This document shows positions 5,922 through 47,830 of a DNA stretch of 64,000 nucleotides, one piece after another. Every line of letters begins with the position of its first letter. The first letter of the stretch is position 1. Source of the stretch: an uncultured Pelagibacteraceae bacterium (GTDB lineage: Bacteria; Pseudomonadota; Alphaproteobacteria; Pelagibacterales; AG-422-B15); contig CACNXQ010000003.1 in assembly GCA_902624455.1 (NCBI GenBank), positions 39,029 to 103,028 of the forward strand, given 5' to 3'. The notes under the pieces were generated by a model. It was not told the DNA's origin. It made no database searches and saw only the letters and a list, made by a program, of their open reading frames with translations. The position numbers were made by a program, and so were the translations under genes.

Positions 5922-6986
5922 ATGGATCAAGGGCTTTTAAAGACTAGAAATGTCTTCATCGATAAAATTTTAGAATTAGAGGACAGTTCAATTGCAATTT
6001 TGCTGTTAATACATTTTTCAAGACACCAAAATTTATTTCTACACAACCAAAAAGACTGGGAAGACAGTCCAACCGATTGGTTGACTGAAGATAAAAGAAT
6101 TCAAGATGAAATTATTGGCATACTCTCATTTGTGATTCTTTACTCTCTTACAAATGCTCATACAGATAATACAATATTTCCTGAGTCAAGAGATTTGATA
6201 GCTAGCATGGGATTAGAAGATTTTCTAAATCAAAAAGAATATTTTTCATCTTTTGATAGTTTTATAGGAAAAAAAATTTCTATAAAGTCCATCTCAGATT
6301 TTTTTAGCATACCAAAAGAAAATACTAGAAGGTATATGAAGCTTATTCTTGAAGCAGGCTTTATTAGTAAGGATAAAAAATATGGATATATGTTAAACAT
6401 TGAAGCCTATAAACAATATATATTCACGGACTCTTTGAATAATATCTGCAAATCACTAATGAGGACATTAGCCGATTTTATATCTAATATCGAAGATGAA
6501 TATCAAGTTGAGTTCAATATAAAACCACTCAAGAATTTTAATTTAAAAAAAGCAAATTTAAAAACATGGTGCCGTGTAAGATTACATTTATACCATTTCT
6601 GGGTTAGAGTTCTAACTCTCGAAGGCAATGATAAAAATTTGAGTCCTAATGATCGGGCGGTTTTATCAGCATCTGTATATTTTAAAAATAGACAAGGGAT
6701 ATTACAATTTAAAAATATTACTGAACTATATGAAAATAACTATTTGCTGCCCACTAATATTTCATCAATTTCAGAGGCTGCTCAAATGCCAAGAGAAACA
6801 GTTAGAAGATCAGTGATGAAACTTATTAAATTAGAACATCTTGAAAAAAAAGGGCGCGATATTTATCGATATAATTATCCAAAAAAAGATGGAGAAATAG
6901 ATAACTTTCTTAAAGTAAAGCAAATATCAGTAAGAGATATGATGAATTTTTATTTTAATATTTATAACGATCTATCAAAAATTTAA
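5922..6986 (+). CDS. Putative transcriptional regulator with two winged-helix HTH-like segments
   Basis: 354 aa. Two HTH-like stretches: ISDFFSIPKENTRRYMKLILEAGFISKDKKYGY and ISEAAQMPRETVRRSVMKLIKLEHLEKKGRDIY. 3' end overlaps the convergent OMF gene by 4 nt. Confidence 0.45.
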   Translation: MDQGLLKTRNVFIDKILELEDSSIAILLLIHFSRHQNLFLHNQKDWEDSPTDWLTEDKRIQDEIIGILSFVILYSLTNAHTDNTIFPESRDLIASMGLEDFLNQKEYFSSFDSFIGKKISIKSISDFFSIPKENTRRYMKLILEAGFISKDKKYGYMLNIEAYKQYIFTDSLNNICKSLMRTLADFISNIEDEYQVEFNIKPLKNFNLKKANLKTWCRVRLHLYHFWVRVLTLEGNDKNLSPNDRAVLSASVYFKNRQGILQFKNITELYENNYLLPTNISSISEAAQMPRETVRRSVMKLIKLEHLEKKGRDIYRYNYPKKDGEIDNFLKVKQISVRDMMNFYFNIYNDLSKI

Positions 6987-9808
6987 ATTGAGCACATCAT
7001 AATGACTTCTTCATTACAGATTAACTCAGCCTCAACAATTGAGGTATTATCGGAGCTCAATTGAGTATCTAATGACTCAAGCATAGACACGGCGTCATTT
7101 TTTGGAACTGGACCAACAATCACTGAGTAATCGTTCTTAGCGATTTGGTCTACGTTAATGTCATATTTAAGAAATCTGCTATCAAAACCCATGACGTCAT
7201 ATAAATAATTCATAAAACTGAAGGCAGAGTTACCTCTCTTATAGGAGCCAATTTTTATATAAACATGTTCGGCATCAGTGTTTTCAATTAGTTGTCCAGT
7301 ATTCGTTTTTGATTCACTTGCCTGTGCCGAATAGCTACTTGAGATTGAAACATCATTAGGATCGATAATCTCATTTAAATCTTCAATAGCATTATTAGCT
7401 TCTAATAATAATTCCTCTTCTTTTTTAGAGGCAATCATTTGATCTAATTCATTTTTTGCATCATGTGCCTCAGCAACAATCTTTTCTAGTTCCTTCTTTG
7501 CTTCATTTGCCTCGGCAACAAATTTACTTACTTCAACATTATCAGATGGCAATTTTTCTGGAAGAATATTTATTAATTCTTCATTTGTTACAGAGTTAGA
7601 TACTACTTCCTCTTCTATGCTGCTCACAACAGATTGTTCAACGACTTCTTCTTCAACTAATTCATTTGTGATTTCAGTTTCAGCATTATTATTAACAATG
7701 TCTGAACTATTTAAAATATTCTCAGCCTCATTCATTGTTTGTTCAACTGAGTCAAGTAAGTTGCTTAAAAGATCAGTTGAATTGATGGCAATATCACTTG
7801 TTAGTGGGGCTTGGCTTGATGGCGCTTCAGAAGTTTCTACAAGTTCTTGTGACTCGTTATTGCCATCTTCAATGACTGCAACTTCCTCCTCAGTTATATT
7901 AAATTCTTCTTCAATGGTTTCATCTATATTTTGGGCTTGTTGGTATAATTCAATAAGCTCTCTTCTTGCTTTCTCACTCTCATCTGCAAGAAATTTTTCT
8001 TCATCAACAAAATTGAGAGTAAAATCATCATTGGTAGAAACGAGGGCATTAGATACAGAAATATTTAGTTTAATACCAGTTACATCTTCAGGAGGATTAC
8101 CTACAATAGATAAATCTGATGTTAGGAATGCTAACCATCTTGGAAGTTCTGTTCCATCTTGTTGAGTAACTTCATATCTTAATTTGCCTGGGCCAGTGAT
8201 ATTAAACGTTTCTTCAGAAATTTTGAATTTATTACTAGTTTGTTGAGTATTGATAGGATCACTAATGATAAGCAGTTTTGGATCTTGTTGATCTAATGGC
8301 AAGTTCACAACAGCTTGATAGTTTTCTCCCCATTCCATCAAACTCATTTCAATATTTTTGCTCAGATCATCCACTGACAAGTTTTCATGATCTGGTGGAA
8401 GAATATCTTTACCTACAGATGCATATATTTGACCAATACTATGCTGCATGTCAGAGAAGGCCAGGTCACGTCTTAGCTCGGCGACTAACAAACTTGCTTC
8501 TTCCCTTATGACTTCTAATTCACCAAATCTTGAGACTTTTTGGGCATTTTGAACCTGTTTACTAATTCTCTGTGCTACATCGAGATATCTTTGGGCAGTA
8601 TCATATTCTTCTATTGCAAGATCATAATTCATATTGGAGAGATGAACTTGTGATAACACTGTCATAGCTATTGCAAGATGTCTCTCGGCAATCAACTCTT
8701 TACTAGCTTTTGAGGATTTAGATACAGCACCGATAGAAAAGATATCAAAAAGATTGCCACCTATTGATGCTCCATATTCTGTGGTATCTTGATTTAATAG
8801 TAAATGGTTATCGCTGTAACCATAAGTTGCATTAAACTTGATTCCTGGAATTAAACCAATAATTGCAGCTCTTGCATCCTTGCTTGTAATCCTCTTTTGG
8901 TACCTACTTTCCATTAATTCTGGTCTCGAAACTAGAGCAATGTTTTCCATAGACTCAATATCCATATCAATATTAGTCAGATAGCTATTTTGATCTGATA
9001 AAGTGAATTTTTGATTTGGCAATAATCCCATAAGCGTAGCTAGTTCATTCTTAGAATTGATTAGTGCTCTTTGCTGAGTTTGAAGCGTTCTTTGAACATC
9101 CAATAATTCTTTTTGATATAACAGGGAGTCCATTGGAGATGATAAAAGAAGTTCTTCAATATACTGAGAGTCGGCCAGAGCTGCATCAACTCTTTCAAGG
9201 AGTGGATTCAATTTATTTAGTAAATTTTCTGAAGCCTTGGCTTTCCAATAAGATCGAATAATATCACGGGTTATGTTTTGTATAGCCTTACGTTCCAACT
9301 CTTTTGCAATGAGAAATCGGTCTGCTTGTTGGCCAGCTCGGATGTAGGATAATCCGAAATCTAGAGCATTCCACGTAAATTCAATATTTCTAGTTTCCAA
9401 TCTTTTATCACGAGAAATTGTATAAGACTCGGTTCCATCAAGTCGTTCAGCATCACCCATATCGTTTTCAACACTCAAACTAGTAGAAGGTTGTAGCTCA
9501 GTAAATTCAGAGTAACCTGCATTTAATGCAATATCAGGCAACATATCAAACCGCTGAAGTTCGTTTTGACGTTGCGCCAAAGCTGACTCCATAACGCTGA
9601 TACGAAGGTCACGATTGTTTTTTATTGCGATAGCAATTGCAGTGTGTAAATTGATATTTTTTAGAGACTCGTTTACACTTAATGCTTCACGATCTGCCGC
9701 AATTGACGAATTGATTTCATCTACATCAAGCACGACTGGCGTTCTTGTACAACCCAACAAAATTAAAAATAGACAAAGAGAGAATATCTTTGTTACTTTA
9801 TCTAACAT
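6983..9808 (-). CDS. TolC-family outer-membrane factor lipoprotein with long C-terminal extension (cadherin-like module, acidic coiled-coil, SPOR-like domain)
   Basis: 941 aa. Lipobox LFLILLGC near the N-terminus. First ~480 aa have the two-repeat OEP/TolC heptad pattern (AIAIAIKNNRDLR..., ALVSRPELMESRYQ...). Then ELPRWLAFLTSDLSIVGNPPEDVTG, an E/D-rich low-complexity and coiled-coil stretch, and a terminal YIKIGSYKRGNSAFSFMNYL...YSVIVGPVPKNDAVSMLESL (SPOR-like). Confidence 0.8.
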   Translation of the reverse strand: MLDKVTKIFSLCLFLILLGCTRTPVVLDVDEINSSIAADREALSVNESLKNINLHTAIAIAIKNNRDLRISVMESALAQRQNELQRFDMLPDIALNAGYSEFTELQPSTSLSVENDMGDAERLDGTESYTISRDKRLETRNIEFTWNALDFGLSYIRAGQQADRFLIAKELERKAIQNITRDIIRSYWKAKASENLLNKLNPLLERVDAALADSQYIEELLLSSPMDSLLYQKELLDVQRTLQTQQRALINSKNELATLMGLLPNQKFTLSDQNSYLTNIDMDIESMENIALVSRPELMESRYQKRITSKDARAAIIGLIPGIKFNATYGYSDNHLLLNQDTTEYGASIGGNLFDIFSIGAVSKSSKASKELIAERHLAIAMTVLSQVHLSNMNYDLAIEEYDTAQRYLDVAQRISKQVQNAQKVSRFGELEVIREEASLLVAELRRDLAFSDMQHSIGQIYASVGKDILPPDHENLSVDDLSKNIEMSLMEWGENYQAVVNLPLDQQDPKLLIISDPINTQQTSNKFKISEETFNITGPGKLRYEVTQQDGTELPRWLAFLTSDLSIVGNPPEDVTGIKLNISVSNALVSTNDDFTLNFVDEEKFLADESEKARRELIELYQQAQNIDETIEEEFNITEEEVAVIEDGNNESQELVETSEAPSSQAPLTSDIAINSTDLLSNLLDSVEQTMNEAENILNSSDIVNNNAETEITNELVEEEVVEQSVVSSIEEEVVSNSVTNEELINILPEKLPSDNVEVSKFVAEANEAKKELEKIVAEAHDAKNELDQMIASKKEEELLLEANNAIEDLNEIIDPNDVSISSSYSAQASESKTNTGQLIENTDAEHVYIKIGSYKRGNSAFSFMNYLYDVMGFDSRFLKYDINVDQIAKNDYSVIVGPVPKNDAVSMLESLDTQLSSDNTSIVEAELICNEEVIMMCSI

Positions 9809-9993
9809 CTATAAGTCTTTTCAATTATTCACTTTTTTCGTTATTGTAATAGTACTAGTAAAATAAAAAACACATATAAAATATCCCCAAAATGGGTCAT
9901 TTTTGTGAATCTAAGTACACCTTAGAAAGTTTGTAGGATATAACTAAATCCATAAATATCAATGAATTAGGTATAGATTCTAATTAAATATAA

Positions 9994-12900
9994 ATGAGTA
10001 AAAAACTGATCCAAGCATTAGAACCACGAGTTATGCTCGATGGTGCCGCTGTAGCCACGGCATTGGATACAATCGATGAGCTCACTCAATCCAACAAAAT
10101 CGATGAGGGATCAGAAAATAAGAGTACTAAATTTAAAGCAGCTAGCGATACCAAACTTCCATTTGTGAATGGAATTGATGCAAGTCAAAATGCGAAGTCA
10201 CGACAAATTATTTTCATCGATAGTGCCGTTGAAGATATCGATACTCTTATAAACAGTTTTGATGCTCATGCAGAAGTTCATGTCATCCAAAGTGATCAAG
10301 ATGGATTTGTTGAAATTCAAAAAATTCTTTCAGATGAAACAAATGTAGATGCATTGCATATCATCGGTCACGGTAGTGTTGGACAAATCGCATTTGGAAC
10401 AGCTGTTTTAAATAGTGATACGTTAGATGCTTACGAAGATACACTCAAAACCATTGGTTTAAGTTTAAGCGAACAAGGGGACATTTTATTTTATGGTTGT
10501 AATGTTGCTGCCGATCAAAATGGTGAAATCTTAATTAATCAAATTGCGGATATTACGCAAGCAGATATTGCAGCATCAGATGATGTCACAGGTAAAGGTG
10601 GCGACTGGGATCTTGAAAAGCATACAGGTATTATTGAGGCCAATAATATTGATGTTGTAAATTATGAACACTCACTTGCAAATGGAGTAGCTTCAACTGA
10701 TTCATCAGTGGTTGAAATTCACGGTGCTACAAACTATGAGGCACGTTGGACTGACCCCACTAACCGTGACGGACAAATGGATCCAAGCTCCGATCGATTT
10801 ATTATTTCTCAAGAGAGAGCTGATGTAACAGGTGGAGCAGGGACTTTAAGTTTTGACGTTTCTGGTGCGAAAAGTTCGCATACACCAAGTACGAGTGAAC
10901 CAGTTCACGTGTATTTACTTTTCTCAAACGATAATACCGATAGCAACTCTCGTCGATCTGGCTCAAGAACAGGTGTCGTGACTTTTGAAAACGATATTTT
11001 GGGTGTCTTCACTAGCCCCTATAAAACCATTGCAATGACTGGGATTTCAAAACCAAACGCTTCATATCCAACGGCAACTTCGGATAAGATTGGAATGAGG
11101 GATTTAGAATATAAAAACGATAATGCTCCAGGACAGCAGGGGAATAAAGACTGGTTTAGAATTTACAATTCAAACAGGTCGATTGAAATTGGTACAAAAA
11201 ACGGACTTAAAGGTGACTTCATTCGTGTCATTACTAGAGCTCCGACTACAGTTGTGGTTGAAGGTAATAATGATGCGGGTTATATCAATGAAGACTCAGC
11301 ATTAAGTGTCACAAATGGTGCTAGTGCAAATGATAGCACGCCTGATACATCAGGAGAACATACAGGTGATGTATTGCTTAATGATACCGGGGGTAACGGA
11401 TCTGATTTATTTGTGAGTGCAATACAAGGAGGATCCGTTGGATCGCTAGTTGATGGTACGTATGGTCAACTAAGGCTCTTTTCGAATGGTTCATACACTT
11501 ACACGGCTAATAAAGATGCTGCTGACACACTTGATGACGGTGATACAGTAACTGACTCATTTACTTATACTGTTAGTGATGATGCAAATAATACCGATAC
11601 TGCAACCATTACAATTACTGTTAGAGGTATCAATGATCCGATTACCGCAGTTAATGACACAGATGCAGTATTTGAAGATCAAAGTATCAGCCGAGGGATT
11701 TCAAGTTCTAAGGAGTTAGATCATGACGATACCGATCCGGATGGTAGTGACTCATCTGGTAGTTTTACAATTACTGCAATCAGAACAGGAAGAGAGTCCT
11801 CAAGTAGCGGAAATGTAACTGGAACTGTTAACTCAGCTCTAAATGGTACTTATGGTGTTCTAACCGTAGGTTCAAACGGATCTTATTCTTATGCAGCCAA
11901 TAGAAGTGGAGCAGACGCGTTAGAAGCAGGTGCATCAGCTATTGATTACTTTACATATACCGTACAAGATCACAGCGGGGGTGACACGGATACAGCTGAG
12001 CTTGCAATTACTGTTACAGGTGTTGGACCAGGCGCTGTGAATGATACTGATACTGTTGCTGAAAATGGTTCCCTCAATCGTAATGCAGCCGCTGGAGTAT
12101 TGGACAATGATGATGATAGTGCTTCATTTGACCAAGAAAATTTAATTGTCACCAACATCACTTCAGATAGCACTGGTAATAGTGGGAATGCTACACAAGG
12201 TGTACTCGGAACCTACGGAACCTTAACAGTTGCAGAGGATGGTAGTTATACATATGTAGCAAATACTGCTGCTGCAGAAGCTTTAGCCGCTGGTGATAAC
12301 AGTCAAACCGATGTATTCACCTATACAGTAAAAGATGATAATGGCGTTAACGCAGATACTGCAACTCTAACCATTACGATACAAGGTCAAGACGATGATC
12401 CTGTCGCATCAGCAGACACAGGAACAGCTACTGAGGATGGTCCACAAGTTTCAGTGAGTGCTGCTAGCGGTGTTTTAGCCAATGATACTGATGTGGATGC
12501 TGGAGAAACGTTAGAGGTTTCAGCTGTTGGGGGTAATGGATCAGCCGTTGGCCAAAATGTTACAGGGTCTCTAGGAACTTTAAATTTAGATGCAGATGGA
12601 TCTTACACATATATTGCTGATCAAGCTGGTGCCGATGCAATTACCGCAGGACAAACTGCGACAGATACATTTAGTTACACCTTAACTGACGGTGAAGGGG
12701 AAACAAGCACGGTAAACCTAGTCATTACGGTTACAGGTAAAGGGCCAGAGGGTGTTGCGGACACAGCAACGGTAAATGAAAACTCAACAGTAGAGAAAAA
12801 CAACGCGGCTACTAATGGTGTATTAGCAAATGATGACGATAACGCATCATTTGATCAAGAAAGCCTTGCAGTAACTGCTATCACGGGAGCATCAGCCGGA

Positions 12901-15900
12901 ACAGTTGGTGGAACAACAGCTGGTACTCATGGTACTCTCACGATGAACCAAGATGGTACTTATTCTTATGCAGCAACTAACGATGCACTTGATGATGGAG
13001 AAACTGTTAATGATGTATTCACGTATACGGTTAAAGACGACGATGATAAAAACTCAAGCACCGCAACATTAACCATTGCAGTAACTGGAGTAAATGACCC
13101 AATTACCGCAGCTGACGATACAGATGGTGTTACGGCTGGGTCAACCATAACAAGAGATGAGGCATCAACCTTTGAGTTAGACCATGACGATACTGACCCT
13201 GATGGTGATGATGTGTCAGGTAACTTTACTATTACTGCTGTAACTCACGCTTCAGGAGATCTTACAGTTGGTCAACAATATACAACATCTAAAGGTAGAA
13301 TTACGATCAATTCAAACGGTTCATATACATATATAGCTGATCAAAGCGGTTCAACAGGCTTATCAAACGGTGCTCAAACAAATGACGTCTTTACATATAC
13401 AGTGAGAGATCACAGTGGAGGTGATACAGACACTGCAACACTTACAATTACAATTACAGGTTCAACTAATAATGCCCCTGTTGCTGATGACCCGGAAGTA
13501 GATGGCAATGCTGGAACGGGATACATCTTAGAAGATCAAACATTGACAGTTACGAATGGTTCTACTGGTGTAACTGGATCTGACAGCAATAATAATAACG
13601 AAACTGGAGACAATACAGGAGACGTTTTAAATAATGATACCGATGCAGATGGTGATCCACTTACTGTTTCTGCAATATCAGGTGGTTCTGTTGGTGCTGG
13701 AGGTGCCACAGGAACATATGGAACATTAACCATTCAAAGTGATGGTAGTTATACCTACAATGCAAATAATGCAAACTCGATAGCAAAAGATACTGAAGCA
13801 ACTGACGTTTTCACTTACACAGTCAGCGATGGCAATGGTGGTACAGATACTGCTACCATAACTATTACTATTTTAGGAGTAAATGATGCTCCAAGTGCAA
13901 GCAATGATACGAATGCTGTTGATGAAGATGCTACAGCATCCAAAAATGCCGGAGCGGGAGTACTGTCCAACGATAGTGATGCTGATACGGGTTCAAGTAT
14001 GACGGTGACTGCAATTACTGGAGTATCAGCGGGTTCGGTTAATGGAACAACAGATGGAACTTATGGTACTCTGACTCTTAATGATGACGGCAGTTATTCT
14101 TATACCGCCAATAAAGCTGCTGCAGACCAATTGGCACACAACGCTACGGCAAATGATGTCTTCACTTATACGGTCAAAGATAACGAGAACGCTACTGCTA
14201 CTGCAACTTTGACTATTGTGGTTACCGGTAAGGGACCTGTTGGTTCAGCTGACACTGCTTCAGTGAATGAAAATGTTTTACTTGAAAAGAATGAAGCAAG
14301 TGGTGTGCTAGCAAATGATAACGGTGGAGATACTGAGAATTTAATTGTTACTAACATTGAATCGAATGATACCAGTAATACCGGCACTGCAGGTCAAGGT
14401 GTTTTAGGAACCTATGGTACTCTCAATATTGCCTCTAATGGAAGCTATACGTATACACCAAATACGGCTGCTGCAGAAGCACTGGATCAAGGTGATGTCG
14501 TTTCAGAAGCCTTTACCTATACCGTAAAAGATGACAATGGTGTCAACTCAAGTACTGCTACCCTTACTATTACGGTAACCGGTGTGAACGATCCGATTGT
14601 AGCAGTTGACGATACCGACAGTGTTGATGAAGGTCAGAGAATAACAAGATTAATCAGTGATGATCAGGAACTTGATCACGATGACACGGATGTAGATACC
14701 GATGATGTGAGTGGAAGTCTTACGATTACAGATATCAGAACAGGTCCTAAGGATGGGACTGGCACCGATGGTTCTGTTAATGTGGCATTACAAGGTGAAT
14801 ATGGAACACTTACTGTACGCCCTAATGGGGGTTATACATACATTGCTGATCAAACAAAATCAGATGACTTGGTTACAGGTCAAACAGGAACAGATATATT
14901 CACTTACACAGTAAGTGACGGCACTGAAACATCGACAGCTCAACTTACTTTCACAGTAACTGGCGTCAACGATAATGACCCTGTTGCAGTGGATGATACA
15001 GATACGGTTAAACGTGATGCTTCAATAACTCGTGCTTCTGGATCTGCATTTGATATAGACTCAGATGATACAGATGCTGATGGAGAAACCCTAACCATCT
15101 CTGCAGTACGAACAGGTCAAGATGAAGGTGGAGGTAAAGGGGGCCCTGCTAGAGTTGGTAAAACACTTGTAGGCACATACGGTACTCTAACCTTGAATTC
15201 TGATGGTAGCTATACTTACGCAGCTGATCAGGATGCAGCGGATAGTCTGAAAAGGGGCGATAGTGCTATTGATTATTTCAACTATACAGTGACCGATGGA
15301 GAAAGAACAGACACAGGAGTAATTGCATTTACAGTTGAAGGTATCAGTGATCCACCTGAACCAGAAGATGATACCCTAGAGGTTGATGCAGGCGCAACGG
15401 CTACAAAGGATGCAACACAAGGCGTATTAAACAATGATAGTGACCCGGATGGAGATACCCTAATTGTTGATAGCATTAGAACGGGTCGAGAAAATAAAAC
15501 AGGTACATCTGGAACAGTTGGCACACCAGGAACAGATGGTACGCCTCTTACTGGCAGATATGGTGACTTAATAATGTATTCTGATGGTAGTTACGAATAC
15601 TCAGCAAATAATGCAAAATCATTAAATCCTGGTGAAACAGCAACAGAATATTTCACTTATACAGCATTTGACACTGATACTTCAGTTCCTGCCGAAATTG
15701 CAATTACGGTTACTGGTCAAAATGATCCACCTGAAGTCGTATTTCCTGTAAATGACCCGATAGTAGTAACAGGACAACAAATCAACATAAGACACAAACA
15801 AATTTTTGACGATCCTGACAGAGGCGCATTTGACATTACTGAATATAAAATTATCGATCCAGAAACAGAAGCAGAAACCAGTCTTCCAGAAGGACTTAGA

Positions 15901-17109
15901 TTAAAGCAAAATAAGTTACATGGAAGTATATCTACTCCTGGTATATATACGATTACTATAAGAGCAATTGATGGAGCTGGTTTATATGCTGATCATACCT
16001 TTACAATTACGGTTCGACCTGCGCCAGGTTTTTTCGCTGAAAATGAACCTATTTTTGAAGAATCATCAGTCAATATTGAACCATTGGTCATAAAGCCTAA
16101 GAAAGATTTCCTAGCAGCAGTCAAAGAGGCATTTAATGAAGGAACATCTAATATCTCTGATGATGGATTTAACTTGGATACCATTTCAATTGCTGACACT
16201 GCATCTCTATCTAAACCATTAAAATTTAATGGTGGCTTGAGATTGATGGACGCAGTCGCTAGTGATGTATCTGATATTGAAGGGGCAGACTTAAAAGTCG
16301 GTGTTAAATTAAATGATGACAACCAAAAAAATGTAGAGTCTTATTCAGGACAACTTTCTGATGGAAAAGCATTACCTGAGTGGATAAGTATCAATCCTGA
16401 AACAGGAGAGACAACTGCAGATATGCCAGATGGTGTTGACCAGGTAGAGGTTCAACTTGTCGCTCTAGATAAAGATGGAAATACAAGAGATATTAATATT
16501 GTTTTAGACAAAGCGAAAATTAAAAATGACCAAGACTTTACTCGAGGTACCGTTGGTCAAACACGAGTTGTTGTTGATAATGACTCTAATGTAAATCTTA
16601 TTCGAGAAAATAATGGTAACGTGAATAACACTGCTTCAAATAATTTGAATGCCGATGCAGACTTTGTTGGCAATATGAAATTAAGCTCACTTCAAATGGA
16701 CTCAGGTAAATTTACAATAGATATTATTGATGATAATCAGTCCAATGTGAAAGCTTATAAAGCTCAACTCAAAGATGGTAGCGCCTTACCTGATTGGGTT
16801 ACGATTGATCCTGAAACAGGAGCTATTTCTGCTGATCCATCTCTAAGTAAAACTGATGTTTCAGTACCTTCATTCATTGCAGATACTCCTACTATTCTAG
16901 AATTAAAGATAATAGCAGAAGATGAGGATGGAAATGAGAGAACAATTGAAGTTGAAATAAACCTTGATGAATTACCAGTTTCAGAAGATGATAGTGCTGA
17001 AAGCCCTGAAAATAATGAACTTTCTTTTATTCCATTAAACGAGCAATTGAAGAACCAAGCTCAACAATCAGATAGCTATGGCGAAAAAATTATGAGTCTT
17101 GTAAGCTAG
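9994..17109 (+). CDS. Giant repetitive surface/secreted adhesin-like protein (N-terminal DUF4347, 12 VCBS-type repeats, cadherin-like C-terminal modules)
   Basis: 2371 aa. N-terminus [14 protein letters not shown] followed by DUF4347-like [14 protein letters not shown]...[16 protein letters not shown]...[10 protein letters not shown]...GGDWDLE. 12 repeats of GTYGTLT..DGSYTY.AN..AADAL..G....DVFTYTV.D..G..[16 protein letters not shown]. C-terminal LPEG/LPEW/LPDW modules. Confidence 0.9.
11260..15735 (+). repeat. In-frame array of 12 diverged ~95-110-aa VCBS-type repeats inside the adhesin gene, with a higher-order pattern of alternating linker types
   Basis: I counted 12 FTYTV/FSYTL/FNYTV/FTYTA cores. 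Linker types recur: ELDHDDTD(P/V)D...FTIT (repeats 2, 6, 10), ANDDDxASFDQE(N/S)L.VT.IT (3, 5) and a related [17 protein letters not shown] linker (9). DNA copies are clearly diverged by eye, not recent duplicates. Confidence 0.85.
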
Positions 17110-17121
17110 TCTCATAAGGTC

Positions 17122-17844
17122 ATGAAAAAATTATATATTTTTTTGACAACGGTTTGTTGTTTTTTACTCATTTTTAAAAGTACTTTTGCCAATGAGTCCT
17201 CAACTCGTATTTTAGTTACGTCAACTGAAGAAGCAACTCTATCCAGCGAAATTGCAGCAAAAGTATTATCCATTCCGGTAAAGACGGGAAATTTATTCAA
17301 AGAGTCAGATCCACTGATTAAATTTGATTGTTCTTTTTTTGAAGCTCAAAAGGATGTGGTCGAGTCAGAATTAGAGAGTGCCAGGGTAACTCTTAAAAGC
17401 AATCAAGATCTTGTCTTGATGAGAGCAATTGGTGATTATGAAGTACAATTATCACAAATTGCAGTAGAGCAAGCTGAAGCTGAGTTAAAGATAGCTCAAC
17501 TTAATACAGATCGATGTATTATTCGAGCACCTTATGATGGTCGTATGTCTGATATCTTTGTGAATGAGTTTGAAAGCATTGAAAGACAACAGCCTCTCTT
17601 GAAAATCATTGGATCGGGTTCGCTAGAGGCTAAGTTAATGGTCTCGAGTAAATGGTTGTCATGGATAACCGTTGGGTATCCTATGCAAATTGTAATTGAT
17701 GAAAATGGTTTAATGTATCAAGCCAAAGTAAGTTCAATTGGTGCAAATATAGATCCAGTAAGCCAGACAATAGATATTACTGCAAAATTTGACGAAAATT
17801 ATGATACATTACTATCTGGAATGAGTGGGACGGCAACATTTTGA
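17122..17844 (+). CDS. Periplasmic adaptor (membrane fusion protein, HlyD/RND-adaptor-like), short form with signal peptide
   Basis: 240 aa. Signal-like MKKLYIFLTTVCCFLLIFKSTFA; lipoyl-like SSEIAAKVLSIPVKTGNLFKESDPLIKFD; coiled-coil; IIRAPYDGRMSDIFV hairpin-return motif. Starts 12 nt after the adhesin stop. Confidence 0.7.
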   Translation: MKKLYIFLTTVCCFLLIFKSTFANESSTRILVTSTEEATLSSEIAAKVLSIPVKTGNLFKESDPLIKFDCSFFEAQKDVVESELESARVTLKSNQDLVLMRAIGDYEVQLSQIAVEQAEAELKIAQLNTDRCIIRAPYDGRMSDIFVNEFESIERQQPLLKIIGSGSLEAKLMVSSKWLSWITVGYPMQIVIDENGLMYQAKVSSIGANIDPVSQTIDITAKFDENYDTLLSGMSGTATF

Positions 17845-19175
17845 GTGAAAACTCTTCTATAAAAATAGCAAGACTAATCACCCTTGAAAAAAAGTTCCGT
17901 ATGTCAGAGACTGAAACGGAGCTTGAATTTACATGTGTTAATGAATTACGAAGTATAATCGATTATAATTTTTTATTTCTTTTAACTAAATCAAATCTTA
18001 ACAAGTTAAAGGTCAAAGCTATCTCAGATATTTCTGTAGTAGATAGAACCGCTCCAGCAGTCACTTTTATCGAAACTCTAATAAAAAAAGACCTTATTCA
18101 AAGTGATGAAATATCAGAATTAAGTCTGAAAGATTTAGAGAATGAAACTGATATTGTATTACCAGAAAATTTTCCAAATGAATTTATCACCGTACCCCTG
18201 ACATCACCTACGAGGGGTAACATAGGTTATTGGGTTATGGTTCGATCTGAGCGTGCAACCAATACTGAACAAGAATTATTGTTACACATTTCAGAAACAT
18301 TTAGCCATGCACTAGGTTCGTTTACTTCAAAAAATTCAATAATGTCTTTCTTTCAAAAAGTATTTACTGGTTGGGTCAAATGGTTATTAATTACCGCTAT
18401 TGCTGCTGCAATGTTTATACCAATAAATATGTCTGCCTTAGCCCCTGTTGAAGTAATTGCAAAAGATCCATCGATCATTACATCCCCTGTTAACGGTGTT
18501 ATTGAAAAAGTATTAGTTAATACTAACGATCCAGTAAGTGTAGGAGATGATTTAGTTAAACTTGATGACTTAAATTTTAAAAACAATTATGAAATTTCTC
18601 TTCAAGAGCTTGAAGTCGCAGAAGCTGAATTGTTAAGAGTTAAGCAATCTTCTTTTACTAATCCTGACGATAAAGCTAAACTTGTGGAACTGTCAACTGA
18701 AGTAGGTTTGAAAAAGAAAGAAGCTGCGTATGCCAAAGAACAGTTAAATTATTCAGTCATTAGTGCTGAAACTAGAGGTGTTGCAGTAGTAGAAGACTCT
18801 ATCGATTGGCAGGGAAGGCCAGTCAGAATTGGTGAAAAGATTTTAACCATTGCTGATCCAACTCAAGTCGAGTTTCTGATTTTCTTACCGACTAAAGATT
18901 CTTTGTTAATTCAAGAGTCTGCAGAAGTTAAAGTATTCTTAGACAGTGATCCTCTTAATTCTTTAGATGCAGAAGTTATTAGAACTTCATACAAACCAGA
19001 ATTAACACCTGAAAATATTCTTGCTTACAGAATATATGCAAGTATTGAGGATGTGGCTCAAAATCCAAGAATAGGATTGAGAGGTACAGCCAAAATTTAT
19101 GGCGAAAAGACCAGTCTATTTTATTATCTTTTCAGGGTTCCTATCAATCTTACCCGACAATTTGTAGGTTTTTAA
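17841..19175 (+). CDS. HlyD-family membrane fusion protein with N-terminal cytoplasmic GAF-like domain
   Basis: 444 aa. TTG start overlaps the upstream stop (TTGA); alternative ATG at 17901. GAF-like ending ITVPLTSPTRGNIGYWVMVRSERATNTEQELLLHISETFSHAL; one TM (WVKWLLITAIAAAMFIPINM); then IITSPVNGVIEKVLVNTNDPVSVGDDLVKLDD plus a coiled-coil and beta-barrel region. Confidence 0.7.
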   Translation: MSENSSIKIARLITLEKKFRMSETETELEFTCVNELRSIIDYNFLFLLTKSNLNKLKVKAISDISVVDRTAPAVTFIETLIKKDLIQSDEISELSLKDLENETDIVLPENFPNEFITVPLTSPTRGNIGYWVMVRSERATNTEQELLLHISETFSHALGSFTSKNSIMSFFQKVFTGWVKWLLITAIAAAMFIPINMSALAPVEVIAKDPSIITSPVNGVIEKVLVNTNDPVSVGDDLVKLDDLNFKNNYEISLQELEVAEAELLRVKQSSFTNPDDKAKLVELSTEVGLKKKEAAYAKEQLNYSVISAETRGVAVVEDSIDWQGRPVRIGEKILTIADPTQVEFLIFLPTKDSLLIQESAEVKVFLDSDPLNSLDAEVIRTSYKPELTPENILAYRIYASIEDVAQNPRIGLRGTAKIYGEKTSLFYYLFRVPINLTRQFVGF

Positions 19176-21281
19176 ATGTTAACACCATTTATCAGACAAG
19201 ATCTTAAACTAAGCAAAGGACCAAAAAAAGAAGATGGTTCTTCAACATGGCTCCTCTACGATGCATTAAGAAACAAATATTTCTCCATCAATAAAAAGGC
19301 TTTTGATTTATTAAGCAACTGGACTGGTGGACAAAAGATGGATGAGTTTATTGTGAAGATGCAATCAATTAATGCATCAATACGTGACGATGAAATAAAA
19401 GACTTTGCTAACTTCTTAAATATTAATAATTTGACTACCAAGAAAACTCAAGACGAAGTCAAATCTCTAGTAGTACAAAAAAATAAATTAAATAAGCATT
19501 GGCTACTTAAACTTGTGCATAATTATCTTTTCTTCAAAATCCCTTTTTTTAGACCAGGCAGTTGGCTAGAAACAACCTTGCCGTATGTATCTGTATTAGG
19601 ATCCAGACTGGTTAGAAACATTATTTACATCTTAGGACTGATTGGTATTTATTTAACAATCTCAAATTATGAAACATTTTTAAATACGTTTTCATATTTC
19701 TTTAATTTAAATGGTTTAATATTTTATATTCTCACCATTATTGTGATTAAAGCATTGCATGAATTAGGGCATGCTTACGTAGCTACATACTATAAATGTA
19801 ACGTATCCTCCATCGGTCTTGCAATGCTGGTATTCTTTCCATTTTTATACACAGATACATCTGATGCTTGGAAACTAACAGATCACCGAAAACGATTACT
19901 GATTAATTTTGCAGGCATGCTGACAGAATTACACATCGCACTGATTGCAACGTTTGCTTGGGCCATCATACCAGAAGGTATTTTAAAAAGCGCAGCTTTC
20001 TTTATAGCAACTTCAAGTTGGATATCCTCTCTCCTTATAAACATAAGTCCGTTCATGAGATTTGATGGCTACTATGTATTATCTGATTATTTAAAAGCCG
20101 ATAACTTACAACCAAGATCCTTTGAATTAGGGCGATGGCAGTTAAGAGAATGGATTTTTGGTTTTAAATTTCAACCCCCTGAGCAGCTGATGAGCAATAG
20201 AAGATGGACGTTTATTATTTATGCATGGTCTACGTGGCTCTATCGGTTCTTTATCTTCATTGGTATTGCATTATTGGTCTATTACTTAACATTTAAAGTG
20301 CTAGGGATAATCTTATTCATTATTGAAATTGTTTGGTTCATCCTTCTTCCAATTTACAGGGAAGTGAAGCGGTGGTGGGGATTGCGTAAATCTATGACAG
20401 TCAATAGAACCTCAATGAGGTCTTTAAGTCTATTTTGTATTTTATTAGTGGCTCTCTTTATACCTTGGAGAACTTCTCTTAGTTTACCAGCAGTTATTGA
20501 GAAAGAAGCTGTGATTGATATTTTTCCACCTGAGGACTCGATGATTAAAAACATTTTTATTGATAATAATCAGATCGTAAAGAAAGGAGATTTATTAATT
20601 AGATTTACTAATCCTTACTTAGCAACTCAAGTTGAACAGGCAATTGATCGTGTAAAACTGATACAAAAGAAACTGGATCGAAGAATAGGATCTGAGTTGG
20701 ATATGAGTAATTTAATGGTTCTAGAAAACCAACTAAAAAAAGAACTGGAAGTACTCAATAATTTAAAAGAACAAAGTAAGGAATTAACAATTTATGCTAA
20801 CCAGGACTCAACTGTTGTAGATTTAAAATATCTTGAGAACAATCAATGGGTCAGTCAGAATGATAAGTTGTTCTCACTAATAGAATCTGGAAATTCTCAA
20901 GTTATTGCATATGTCAATGAGACAGACCTAAATAAAATTAAAAGTAAGAGCACAGGGGTCTTTTTTTCAAAAAATAATGAATATTCAAATATTGAAGTTC
21001 AATTAAGAGATCTTAATGAAACATCTACTGAAGAACTGCCTTACTTATCACTCACATCTTCTTATGGCGGTCCTATTGCAACAAGAGAAGTTGAAGGCAA
21101 AAAAACTTCGCAACGCCCTGAAAAAGCACTTTACCAAGTAAATTTTCAAACTCTCTCACAACACAGCGATCTTCAATGGGAAACGCCTGGAGTCGTTAAA
21201 TTAAAAAGTGAGAATTACAATGTATTTCAAAACCTCTTCAATTTAGTAACATCAACCCTAATTCAAGAAAGTGGTTTTTAA
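19176..21281 (+). CDS. Site-2 protease (peptidase M50) / membrane-fusion-protein chimera with PqqD-like N-terminal domain
   Basis: 701 aa. ATG directly abuts the upstream TAA. N-terminus WLLYDALRNKYFSINKKAFDLLSNWTGGQKMDEF (PqqD-like). HELGH at nt 19758-19772 and NISPFMRFDG at nt 20040-20069 lie within multi-TM segments. C-terminal MIKNIFIDNNQIVKKGDLLIRF plus long coiled-coil and TVVDL (HlyD-like). Confidence 0.8.
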   Translation: MLTPFIRQDLKLSKGPKKEDGSSTWLLYDALRNKYFSINKKAFDLLSNWTGGQKMDEFIVKMQSINASIRDDEIKDFANFLNINNLTTKKTQDEVKSLVVQKNKLNKHWLLKLVHNYLFFKIPFFRPGSWLETTLPYVSVLGSRLVRNIIYILGLIGIYLTISNYETFLNTFSYFFNLNGLIFYILTIIVIKALHELGHAYVATYYKCNVSSIGLAMLVFFPFLYTDTSDAWKLTDHRKRLLINFAGMLTELHIALIATFAWAIIPEGILKSAAFFIATSSWISSLLINISPFMRFDGYYVLSDYLKADNLQPRSFELGRWQLREWIFGFKFQPPEQLMSNRRWTFIIYAWSTWLYRFFIFIGIALLVYYLTFKVLGIILFIIEIVWFILLPIYREVKRWWGLRKSMTVNRTSMRSLSLFCILLVALFIPWRTSLSLPAVIEKEAVIDIFPPEDSMIKNIFIDNNQIVKKGDLLIRFTNPYLATQVEQAIDRVKLIQKKLDRRIGSELDMSNLMVLENQLKKELEVLNNLKEQSKELTIYANQDSTVVDLKYLENNQWVSQNDKLFSLIESGNSQVIAYVNETDLNKIKSKSTGVFFSKNNEYSNIEVQLRDLNETSTEELPYLSLTSSYGGPIATREVEGKKTSQRPEKALYQVNFQTLSQHSDLQWETPGVVKLKSENYNVFQNLFNLVTSTLIQESGF

Positions 21282-21287
21282 AAATAA

Positions 21288-23324
21288 TTAATGCTTAGAA
21301 ACTAGATTTACGAGAAAAGCATTATCCAAAGCACTTTCTTCTAACGCATTTAACCGTCCACTTTTACCAGCATGCCCGCCAACCAGATTCATTTTCATGA
21401 GTATCGGATTATCTGACGTTGAATTTTCTCTTAGTTTTGGAACATATTTTGCAGGTTCATAGTACTGAACTTGTGAGTCATAAAGGCTCGATGTGACAAG
21501 AACTGCTGGATAATTAGACGGTTTGATATTGTCATACGGTGAATAGCTTTTGATGTAGTCATATTCTTCTTTATTGGCTGGATTGCCCCATTCTTTGTAC
21601 TCAAATGTTGTTAAAGGTATCGATTCGTCAGACATGGTGGTTAAAACATCTACAAATGGAACAGCAGAAATAATTCCCGTATACAGTTCTGGTTCCATGT
21701 TGATCACTGCTCCCATTAAAAGACCTCCTGCACTGCCGCCCATTGCGAATACACATTTGCTGTCACCGTATCCCCTCTCAATCAATGATTTGGTGGCATC
21801 AATAAAATCATGAAAGGTATTTTTTTTATTTAAAATTTTACCATCGTCATACCATTGACGTCCCATCTCAGATCCACCTCTAATGTTTGCAACAGCAAAA
21901 ATAAAACCTCTGTTCAATAAAGGAAGAATTGAAGTTCTAAATGCAGCATCTATGATAATGCCATAAGATCCATAACCATAAACAAGAATAGGAGCATTTT
22001 TTAAATCGACACCTTTCTTATAAACTAAAGATACAGGTACTTTTGTATCATCCCGAGCATGAATTTTCAGTCTTTCCACATCGTATAAGCTTTCGTCATA
22101 ATTACTCACCAATTGTTGCCATGCCAAATCACTTTTACCAGTTTGAATATTCTCTTTGAAAATTGAACTAGGCTTTTTTGGACTTGAATAGCCATAGTAA
22201 AATTCTGTGTCAAGATAATCGTTATTGGTAGCTAGATAACAAGAAAACGCAGGCTCACTAAACTCAATGTATTGTCTATCAAGCGACTTTCTATGTATTT
22301 TTAAAATTTTGGGTAAGCCATCTTCTCTAATCTCTAAATATAAATATTCAGGAAAAGCAATAAAGTCTTCGATTAAAATCTTACTATCGTGTTCAATCAC
22401 CGTTTCCCAGCTATCGTAGTTATTAATTTGGTCGAGATTAAATTTTAGGATTTCAAAGTTTTTTTTGTCATTTTTATTACTGCTTGCATAAAAACATTCA
22501 GGTGTATCTTCGATAGAATAAAGATGTTTTTCCGATCTTTCTAAAACGCAGAAAGGCTTACTATTTTCATCGTCTAAATCAAGCAACCATGTTTCGGATG
22601 CTTCAGTCTTGCTACTATAGATGTTAAGATATTTTTTTGTTCTAGACTCAAAAATATGTAAATGAAATTCTGTGTCCTTTTCTTCGTATATTAGAATGTC
22701 TTCTTTTGTATCAGTGCCTACTTTGTGTTTAAACACTTTATTTTCAATTAAGGTAACAGGATCTTTGAGAGCGTAATAAATCGTGTCATTGTTTTTGTTC
22801 CACACCACACTGCCCGATGATCTTTGAATACTTTCGTCAATTATTTGACCTGTTTCTAAATTCTTTATCTTTATATTGTACTCTCTCCGTCCTGATAAAT
22901 CTTCGGCATAAGCTATATAATGATTATTTGGTGAAGGTGTAATGGAGGCCACATTAAAATAATCTAAATCTTTTGCTAACTCATTTACATCAAGGACTAA
23001 TTCTTTGTTTCTATTTATTTCACGATAATATGTTTTGTATTGTTGATCTGAACTGATCTCTGAAAAATAATAATAATCACCATACTTAACCTTCATTGAA
23101 ACTTCATGTGGTGGAATAAAGCTAACTAATTCATCGTAGATCTCTTTTCTACAATCGTTCTTACTTTCAAACCAAGACTCCAGGTATTTATTTTCAGCTT
23201 CTAAATAGGAGATAACCTCAGGATTTTTGCGAGTATCGTCTCTCAGCCAATAGTAATCATCAATACGTTCATCACCGTGAGCGGTATGGATCTTTGGAAT
23301 TTTTTTTGGCTGAGGAGGTTTCAT
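21288..23324 (-). CDS. ptrB: Oligopeptidase B / prolyl oligopeptidase family S9A serine protease
   Basis: 678 aa. N-terminus HGDERIDDYYWLRD; catalytic-domain GGSAGGLLMG nucleophile elbow; C-terminal GGHAG. Confidence 0.85.
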   Translation of the reverse strand: MKPPQPKKIPKIHTAHGDERIDDYYWLRDDTRKNPEVISYLEAENKYLESWFESKNDCRKEIYDELVSFIPPHEVSMKVKYGDYYYFSEISSDQQYKTYYREINRNKELVLDVNELAKDLDYFNVASITPSPNNHYIAYAEDLSGRREYNIKIKNLETGQIIDESIQRSSGSVVWNKNNDTIYYALKDPVTLIENKVFKHKVGTDTKEDILIYEEKDTEFHLHIFESRTKKYLNIYSSKTEASETWLLDLDDENSKPFCVLERSEKHLYSIEDTPECFYASSNKNDKKNFEILKFNLDQINNYDSWETVIEHDSKILIEDFIAFPEYLYLEIREDGLPKILKIHRKSLDRQYIEFSEPAFSCYLATNNDYLDTEFYYGYSSPKKPSSIFKENIQTGKSDLAWQQLVSNYDESLYDVERLKIHARDDTKVPVSLVYKKGVDLKNAPILVYGYGSYGIIIDAAFRTSILPLLNRGFIFAVANIRGGSEMGRQWYDDGKILNKKNTFHDFIDATKSLIERGYGDSKCVFAMGGSAGGLLMGAVINMEPELYTGIISAVPFVDVLTTMSDESIPLTTFEYKEWGNPANKEEYDYIKSYSPYDNIKPSNYPAVLVTSSLYDSQVQYYEPAKYVPKLRENSTSDNPILMKMNLVGGHAGKSGRLNALEESALDNAFLVNLVSKH

Positions 23325-23365
23325 TTATGTCTAATATATTACTGATATGTGTTTCTTCAATCTAG

Positions 23366-23439
23366 TGGTGCCCCTAGCTGGTTACGCTCCAGCGGCTGAT
23401 CATTACCAATGACCTGCTTTACTATTAAGCGATAGGGGC
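23366..23439 (-). tRNA. Atypical tRNA-like gene; cloverleaf with Thr (GGU) anticodon but non-canonical D- and T-loops
   Basis: Minus-strand 74 nt: GCCCCTA TC GCTT AATAGTA AAGC A GGTCA TTGGTAA TGATC AGCC GCTGG AGCGTAA CCAGC TAGGGGC A CCA. All four stems pair perfectly (one G:U). The T-loop is AGCGTAA instead of TTCRANN, and the 7-nt D-loop has no GG. Confidence 0.5.
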
Positions 23440-23455: not shown

Positions 23456-23857
23456 TCAAGAACACCAGTCTTTTTTATTGCCTCGTTCATATACTACACC
23501 CAGATTATTGCTTCTAATTTTAGCTGATGCATCATCACCATCAATAATTAAATATCCTAACGTTCTTCCAAAATAATCTTTTTCATAATCAGTTTTAATT
23601 TCAACTGATGAGGCATTAGCGATAAGATTGTTAAGATAATCTCTAGCCTCTAAGCCAAGCTCAAGCTCTGCTTCACATTTGGGTTTAGATATTTCAGGAG
23701 TATCAAGCTCTAATAATCTAATCTTGGCTTTAGTGCCATCAATCATGACATAGCATGTGTCACCATCATAGCAGTATTGCCCGTTGTATTGACGCAATGC
23801 TATTTCAGCTTCGGCTAAAGTCACCATGCTAAAAAATAGTAAGATTAGATGTTTCAT
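23456..23857 (-). CDS. Secreted thermonuclease (staphylococcal nuclease, SNase-like) family protein
   Basis: 133 aa. Signal peptide MKHLILLFFSMVTLAEA; SNase-like KIRLLELDTPE ... DYFGRTLGYLIIDG. Confidence 0.7.
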   Translation of the reverse strand: MKHLILLFFSMVTLAEAEIALRQYNGQYCYDGDTCYVMIDGTKAKIRLLELDTPEISKPKCEAELELGLEARDYLNNLIANASSVEIKTDYEKDYFGRTLGYLIIDGDDASAKIRSNNLGVVYERGNKKDWCS

Positions 23858-47672: not shown

Positions 47673-47748
47673 GGCTCGATAGCTCAGTTGGTAGAGCAAA
47701 GGACTGAAAATCCTTGTGTCGGTGGTTCAATTCCACCTCGAGCCACCA
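47673..47748 (+). tRNA. tRNA-Phe (GAA)
   Basis: GGCTCGATAGCTCAGTTGGTAGAGCAAAGGACTGAAAATCCTTGTGTCGGTGGTTCAATTCCACCTCGAGCCACCA. Canonical cloverleaf, anticodon loop CTGAAAA, encoded CCA. Confidence 0.95.
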
Positions 47749-47753
47749 CGTAT

Positions 47754-47830
47754 GCAGCTGTAGCTCAGTTGGTTAGAGCGCCTGGTTGTGGTTCAGGAGG
47801 TCGGTAGTTCGAATCTACCCAGCTGTACCA
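47754..47830 (+). tRNA. tRNA-His (GUG) without encoded G-1; G1:U72, A73
   Basis: GCAGCTGTAGCTCAGTTGGTTAGAGCGCCTGGTTGTGGTTCAGGAGGTCGGTAGTTCGAATCTACCCAGCTGTACCA. Anticodon loop TTGTGGT. The base before G1 is T. 5 nt downstream of tRNA-Phe. Confidence 0.9.

Follow-up and report, generated by a model that had tools for sequence, protein, structure and literature searches.

The 74-nt minus-strand element described here is likely to be a genuine tRNA-Thr(GGU) gene of a Pelagibacterales (SAR11-type) bacterium, kept under selection and working as a decoder, as judged from its sequence and that of its relatives. It probably encodes an essential bacterial elongator tRNA despite the loss of four near-universal bases. 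Bacterial elongator tRNAs are regarded as almost invariant at these four bases (G18, T54, Psi55 and A58), on which the folding of the elbow, two near-universal modifications, and recognition by both RNase P and the ribosome depend. If the element is indeed a sole working SAR11 decoder, it would provide a natural system for testing elbow requirements, and the 'universal' T-loop and D-loop bases, together with the TrmA/TruB modifications, would be dispensable for bacterial translation.

The element was found in a 64,000-nt stretch of DNA (the window; ~33% GC). The original prediction had offered a divergent functional tRNA, a regulatory or processing element and a tRNA mimic as alternatives; the first fits best and the other two are unsupported.

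Fold, anticodon and elbow of the element

Read on the minus strand, the element runs GCCCCUA-UC-GCUU-AAUAGUA-AAGC-A-GGUCA-UUGGUAA-UGAUC from the 5' acceptor strand to the anticodon arm, followed by AGCC-GCUGG-AGCGUAA-CCAGC-UAGGGGC-A-CCA. Every predicted detail of the cloverleaf was confirmed: 74 nt, stems of 7/4/5/5 bp, a single G:U pair (linear 27-41, standard 28-42) and an A73-CCA end. The variable region is 4 nt long. The minimum free energy (MFE) fold was the cloverleaf (-27.8 kcal/mol; z = -3.07 versus shuffles), and no ORF of at least 60 aa in the window ORF list overlapped the element (Table 1).

Scoring with Infernal, which had been proposed as a check, gave a full-length match to Rfam RF00005 (23369-23439(-), model positions 1-71/71) at 50.9 bits, against a gathering score of 29 bits (E = 5.7e-8 for the window). 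ARAGORN, the other scoring tool proposed, made no call at 23366-23439 with default settings and called tRNA-Thr(ggt) when its threshold was lowered by 5% (-ps95). In the covariance-model alignment, the core bases U8, A14, A21, U33, purine 37, G53-C61, G19 and C56 were all present.

The same alignment was used to check whether the arms had been mis-parsed: the loops were still non-canonical, with G19 kept. The claim of a D-loop lacking G18G19 was therefore correct as to the GG dinucleotide, which is gone, and as to G18, which is replaced by A18, and wrong as to G19, which is retained. The T-loop AGCGUAA, with its A54/U58 swap and G55, was upheld. The element thus carries A18, A54, G55 and U58 in place of G18, U54, U55 and A58, and because the latter four are absent it was classed as a variant and was missed by ARAGORN at default settings. 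A literature search on SAR11 and the T-loop returned nothing relevant, and no published description of such an elbow was found in it.

The tRNA-Phe and tRNA-His of the window have canonical GG D-loops and UUCRAUU T-loops, therefore the loop anomaly is specific to this gene and not genome-wide. The tRNA-His gene begins 5 nt after tRNA-Phe and has G1.U72, A73 and no encoded G-1, which is the atypical alphaproteobacterial form. This Phe/His pair is a conserved Pelagibacter landmark, at the left boundary of a hypervariable region (bioRxiv 10.64898/2026.04.03.716430).

Table 1. Positions of the element, its parts and the features around it, in window coordinates
Feature	Position	Strand	Remarks
tRNA-Thr(GGU) gene, allele A	23366..23439	-	74 nt including encoded A73-CCA; Rfam RF00005 50.9 bits, MFE cloverleaf, identical copies
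D-loop AAUAGUA (A14 A15 U16 A18 G19 U20 A21)	23420..23426	-	7 nt; covariance-model alignment; invariant in six A-type alleles
Anticodon GGU in loop UUGGUAA (U33, A37)	23405..23407	-	sequence, covariance model, ARAGORN -ps95
T-loop AGCGUAA (A54 G55 C56 G57 U58 A59 A60)	23382..23388	-	invariant in A-type alleles except G57A in L109
Overlap of 5' (nt 1-38) and 3' (nt 30-74) halves, AUUGGUAAU	23402..23410	-	ends of half copies
SNase-family nuclease	23456..23857	-	Pfam PF00565, E = 1.7e-8; 16 nt upstream of the tRNA
Promoter-like site TTGAAG-16-TATATT	23333..23360	-	tRNA-ptrB spacer
Oligopeptidase B (ptrB)	21288..23324	-	Pfam PF02897 and PF00326; ATG at 23324, 41 nt past the tRNA
tRNA-Phe and tRNA-His	47673-47830 (His 47754-47830)		
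Type I secretion-like cluster	6983-21281		

From textbook tRNA structure, the loss of G18, U54, U55 and A58 should weaken the elbow, and the loss of U54 and U55 should remove the target sites of TrmA/TrmFO and TruB. Canonically, the elbow has G19-C56 as its outer Watson-Crick pair and U54-A58 as the closure of the T-loop, and G18 is intercalated between positions 57 and 58, in contact with the Psi55 carbonyl (PMC4810234). The G19-C56 pair could still form in the present element (allele A), and the purine at 57 is maintained. G18/U55 is replaced by A18/G55, for which a contact of the A18 amino group with G55 O6 and the intercalation of purine 18 may still be possible, and U54/A58 is replaced by A54/U58. 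Allele C, a more ordinary tRNA found at the same position in relatives (see below), has G/U at positions 18/55 (A/G in allele A) and G/G at 54/58 (A/U in allele A); both alleles share G/C at 19/56, a purine at 57 and A at 60.

Alleles at the locus and threonine decoding

Copies identical to the window element over all 74 nt were found upstream of ptrB in L001 and L020, and also in 45 metagenome contigs. Allele B (L005, L035) kept both odd loops and differed in the acceptor, anticodon and T stems. In ten relatives (L008, L009, L011, L013, L014, L016-L019, L046) the same slot, directly upstream of ptrB, was occupied by allele C (GCCCCCA..AAUGGUA..UUGGUAA..GUCAGUA..UGGGGGC-A-CCA), which ARAGORN called as Thr(ggt) at default settings and which scored 59.1 bits with Rfam in L008. 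A metagenome scan, for which the query was the 5' half with the A18 D-loop and the T-arm was left unconstrained, returned 88 stretches. Sixty complete copies among these represented five alleles (45, 11, 2, 1 and 1 copies), and the T-loop was AGCGUAA in all metagenomic alleles, save one with AGCAUAA. A sixth A-type allele, borne by a mobile element, is devoid of an encoded CCA (L148).

Across the six A-type alleles, 7 of the 21 pairs were changed on both sides, which represents few independent events, since the alleles are few and related; 100% of the cells were paired and no pair was broken. None of 500 shuffles reached this value, and slid controls were 17-47% paired. When allele C and its variant C′ (L013) were added, the changed pairs rose to 12 of 21, still with 100% pairing. 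Unpaired positions were invariant in the A-type alleles, except for G57A in L109 and the CCA tail of the L148 copy. The comparison of related genomes that had been proposed thus found the element conserved and its stem changes compensatory, in agreement with the view that the structure is selected and not decaying. Judged by sequence, stems that vary only in pairs around frozen loops are the signature of a working tRNA. The 60 complete copies are near-identical to each other, with wholly divergent flanks, and copying by mobile elements, as opposed to selection acting on the RNA, could account for part of this uniformity.

Genomes with A, B and C alleles were interspersed in a ptrB tree (L001-L020, L035, L046), which suggests replacement by recombination rather than vertical descent. 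In this tree, L020 (allele A) grouped with L017 (C) and L005 (B) with L014 (C). Alleles A' and L118 resemble stem-wise mosaics of A and B.

A search of 13 loci (96 kb) with Rfam at the gathering threshold and default filters recovered allele A' at 50.3 bits and allele C at 59.1 bits but not alleles B (L005), L109 and L148, which we read as filter loss and not as counter-evidence. Allele B was also missed by ARAGORN at default settings. Pipelines that depend on ARAGORN could under-count tRNAs in these genomes, and completeness estimates may be affected.

Rules for threonine tRNA identity were reportedly set out by Hasegawa in 1992. The predicted GGU anticodon was present, as were the threonine identity elements of ThrRS (PMC9976931), i.e. 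G1-C72, C2-G71, G35 and U36, which are invariant in all eight alleles. The CCA end is encoded, as it is in the tRNA-Phe and tRNA-His of the window. The element would be transcribed, trimmed to its encoded CCA end and charged by ThrRS through G1-C72, C2-G71, G35 and U36, and the charged tRNA would decode ACC/ACU codons on the ribosome.

A different use is conceivable, in which the element is charged with threonine, stays off the ribosome and donates the amino acid elsewhere, beside a canonical tRNA-Thr(GGU) in the same genome. Its G55 and the lost D-loop GG do resemble the non-proteinogenic tRNA-Gly, the closest bacterial precedent (PMC4574755), but that tRNA has U19, whereas G19-C56 is kept here. 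ACT and ACC make up 530 of the 1074 Thr codons (49%) in the long ORFs of the window, so a GGU decoder is required for half of them. No second Thr(GGU) copy was detected in the 64-kb window, within 4 kb in relatives or in the 10-kb loci, and when loci were compared, alleles A and B occupied the very slot of the ordinary-looking allele C, as a replacement and not an addition. Complete Pelagibacter genomes have only 30-36 tRNAs (bioRxiv 10.64898/2026.04.03.716430); their sets are therefore near non-redundant, with little room for spare isoacceptors. The neighbouring genes (SNase, ptrB, typA) include no tRNA-dependent transferase. A specialised off-ribosome role is thus unlikely.

The element would accordingly be expected to be the only GGU decoder of its genome. 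The stronger proposition, that in a free-living bacterium of worldwide abundance all ACC/ACU decoding is performed by a tRNA with a co-varied elbow lacking G18, T54, Psi55 and A58, which segregates among close relatives with another non-canonical allele (G54/G58), we regard as evenly balanced.

Partial copies, mobile elements and flanking genes

About 18 of the metagenomic copies were 5' halves, breaking at nt 38 or 39 and continuing into promoter-like sequence. In L086, L129 and L140, a 5' half was followed after 9.2-10.3 kb by a full tRNA gene, and L105 and L141 were the matching empty sites. Relative to these empty sites, the insertions leave an intact tRNA sequence restored, as would be predicted if disruption of the gene carried a cost. 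Conversely, 3' halves (nt 30-74, starting at nt 30 or 31) were located downstream of a full gene in L130, L124, L168, L119, L110 and L083. The locus thus has partial tRNA repeats that bound inserts, empty sites, and integrases beside partial copies. Nucleotides 30-38 (AUUGGUAAU, anticodon loop), where the two kinds of halves overlap, are the likely integrase crossover site.

The inserts flanked by a 5' half at their left end and by the full tRNA at their right end (L129 79-9524, L086 2-10424, L140 6-9288) appear to supply the 5' half of the tRNA together with its upstream region. An ATCAAT(G/A)CTTT motif, which could be a -10 box, lies just upstream of the tRNA in these inserts. L129 carries a CHAT-domain protein and a split helicase, and no integrase was found in its insert. 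Mirror-image inserts (full tRNA, island, 3' half) were seen in L083 (83-7401), L130 (220-4041), L124, L168, L119, L110 and L010 (2343-3927); the cargo was a type I restriction-modification system in L083 and an Mrr-helicase fusion in L130. In L010, which has allele C, an integrase 37.5% identical to that of L085 lies beside the 3' half. Both in L010 and in the elements with 5' halves, the integrase adjoins the partial copy and points into the island.

L085 (1-8039) contains a 5' half that is repeated with its flanks 7245 bp apart (terminal repeat, 159-232 / 7404-7477). From the assembly only, it was read as a circular contig and putative free form of an element. This 7.2-kb sequence comprises tRNA nt 1-38, promoter-like sequence, a P4-type tyrosine integrase (PF00589 and PF13356) directly after the half, and a DUF5906/VapE-like primase-helicase. 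Integrases 41-53% identical to that of L085 follow the 5' half, or the CCA-less copy of L148, in eight more contigs, and elements of the L085 type were also noted in L145, L123, L089, L151, L100, L152 and L102. The L085-type element looks like a small SAR11 satellite or a tycheposon-like element. IMG/VR scans with the 5' half and the 3' half gave no match, and blastn of alleles A and C against INPHARED revealed no attP, only generic similarity to the tRNA-Thr genes of jumbo phages. Phage relatives of the L085 integrase were distant only (≤30% identity).

Some elements seem to carry a whole tRNA gene. The full-length L148 copy (338-411) has the acceptor GCCUCAU/AUGAGGC, with a compensatory change at pair 4-69, ends in ACGT without an encoded CCA, and lies directly upstream of the start codon of an integrase (421-1590); a second full-length CCA-less copy lies in L150 (1499-1572). 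In L163, a diverged 5' half (GCUCC...CUCAAUAG) is found 1.5 kb upstream of an intact A' allele (573-646 and 2116-2189), and is probably a decaying remnant of an old insertion. The 64-kb window contains only the intact gene and no half copy. Another reading, in which an island separates the window element, as a displaced pseudo-copy, from the real gene at its other end, was rejected, as no other copy or half was detected in the 64-kb window.

Integration sublocations within tRNA genes are said to have been described by Williams in 2002. Pelagiphages integrate in SAR11 tRNA genes, and the phage-borne 5' part rebuilds the gene, with base changes in some cases (bioRxiv 10.1101/410191). SAR11 tRNA-Thr sequence is also present in HTVC106P-like viral contigs (10.1101/2019.12.14.876532), and in Prochlorococcus, tycheposons seed islands at tRNA-Thr(GGU), among other tRNAs (10.1101/2020.12.28.424599). 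The attachment-site role is thus ordinary in kind and fits known integration at tRNA genes. The anticodon-loop region is the attachment site of tyrosine-integrase elements that carry nt 1-38 or nt 30-74, and these rebuild the tRNA gene on insertion, giving rise to a hot spot of variable, largely defence-related islands. Integrative elements, for which the gene halves serve as attachment sites, may be the route by which alleles A and C are exchanged or maintained. In this way the locus illustrates how tRNA halves on mobile elements shape a defence-island hot spot of SAR11.

Such traffic raises the alternative of a non-functional pseudo-tRNA relic, maintained only because mobile elements use it as an attachment site and copy it anew. 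Half copies are numerous at this integration hot spot, tRNA halves travel with the elements and are left behind by them, SAR11 phages alter host tRNA sequence (bioRxiv 10.1101/410191), and the alleles do not track the ptrB tree. An attachment site, however, needs core and arm sites only and not 21 intact pairs, and here the stems changed only by double compensatory substitution around fixed loops. The acceptor stem, discriminator and CCA are intact although they lie outside the 9-nt core, no A/C chimaeras were found among the 60 complete copies, and genuine relics at this locus are exemplified by the displaced half copies. A relic is for these reasons very unlikely, and the tRNA is better read as a functional gene that doubles as an attachment site.

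The original prediction had also linked the element to its neighbours, from which it might be excised as part of a polycistronic transcript, or for which it might act as a processing signal, regulator or mimic. The spacing on which this was based was exact (16 nt from the nuclease stop and 41 nt to the ptrB start, all on one strand). In relatives the SNase gene is ~1.8-2.3 kb away from the tRNA or absent, the 60 complete copies have at least 31 types of upstream and at least 26 types of downstream flank, and L111 and L122 present contexts without ptrB, SNase or typA altogether. No tRNA was found within 4 kb of ptrB in L002-L004, where ptrB is 93% identical to that of the window and the end of another gene lies directly upstream of it. 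The tRNA-ptrB spacer contains a promoter-like site, and similar sequence was present in L001, L005, L020 and L009, which suggests that ptrB has its own promoter there, at a predicted site; the count of such sites was not above that of shuffles. Excision from a nuclease-ptrB transcript is not supported, given the flank diversity and the promoter-like site, and a polycistronic or regulatory link to ptrB was rejected on the flank diversity and the absence of the tRNA upstream of the closest ptrB genes. Because the flanks are diverse, the closest ptrB genes lack the tRNA and the spacer is promoter-like, a part in processing or regulation is not supported. A cis-acting tRNA-like element of the nuclease-ptrB transcript, e.g. 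a ThrRS-binding operator of the kind known from E. coli thrS (PMC9976931), is thus extremely unlikely, all the more as the element has a complete acceptor stem with CCA, unlike operators.

The closest ptrB loci (81-93% identity) were from single-cell and metagenome genomes of Pelagibacteraceae/Pelagibacterales. The next tier (L021-L045) consisted of SAR86 gammaproteobacteria at 51-71% identity, and no other alphaproteobacteria occurred among the 80 ptrB loci kept. The pattern suggests either that genes were exchanged between these two streamlined lineages, which co-occur in the sea, or that genomes were mislabelled. That the window itself comes from a mislabelled SAR86 genome was judged unlikely, because an alphaproteobacterial source is supported both by the form of its tRNA-His (G1.U72 and A73, no G-1) and by its Phe/His tRNA pair, which matches Pelagibacter. 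On the far side of ptrB, the type I secretion-like cluster (Table 1) encodes a fusion of an outer-membrane efflux protein with Ig-like repeats (941 aa), a cadherin/Big_9 repeat protein of 2371 aa, a pair of HlyD-like proteins, and a peptidase M50-HlyD fusion of 701 aa. In L111 and L122, the tRNA is immediately adjacent to M50-HlyD genes.

Comparison with known tRNAs and integrative elements

The canonical tRNA-Thr(GGU) of E. coli (thrT/thrV) shares with the element the class I cloverleaf, GGU, G1-C72, C2-G71 and A73-CCA, as well as U8, A14, U33, A37, G53-C61, G19 and C56; the element differs from it in A18, A54, G55, U58, the 7-nt D-loop and the 4-nt variable region. Allele C is alike in its slot upstream of ptrB, the anticodon loop, the GCCCC top of the acceptor, A73-CCA and the length of 74 nt, but it keeps G18 G19 and U55 C56, has G54/G58, and differs in all four stems by compensatory changes.

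A precedent for ribosomal use without G18G19 and T54-Psi55-C56 is tRNA-Pyl (pylT; PMC1851642). As tRNA-Pyl works on the ribosome, translation can proceed without the canonical elbow bases. It differs in being a dedicated suppressor and in its dimensions (6-bp anticodon stem, 5-nt D-loop, 3-nt variable loop); the present element has standard stems, a sense anticodon and the retained G19-C56. For the T-loop, eukaryotic initiator tRNA and AGC-tRNA-Ala are similar in having A54 with a purine at 60, but they keep A58 (m1A58), Psi55 and G18, whereas the element has U58. The A54/A58 combination has been recorded only in these two and was stated not to be observed in bacteria or archaea (PMC7566577).

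Among bacterial tRNAs, the staphylococcal non-proteinogenic tRNA-Gly has likewise lost U55 and the D-loop GG. These tRNAs are extra isoacceptors that feed cell-wall synthesis, and G19 is also lost (U19). Their T-loop reads UGC. They have a low affinity for EF-Tu and do not possess the G18/G19 and U55/C56 set (PMC4574755). The element, by contrast, gives no sign of being a surplus copy or of serving a non-ribosomal client.

As an integration locus, the gene resembles pelagiphage, tycheposon and PICI-like systems, in which a tyrosine integrase adjoins a partial tRNA and islands are found at tRNA-Thr(GGU), among others, and it resembles the SAR11 phages in that a mobile 5' part rebuilds the host tRNA. 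Unlike the pelagiphages, the elements at this locus are 7-10 kb integrase and primase circles or integrase-less cargo islands, and not podoviruses.
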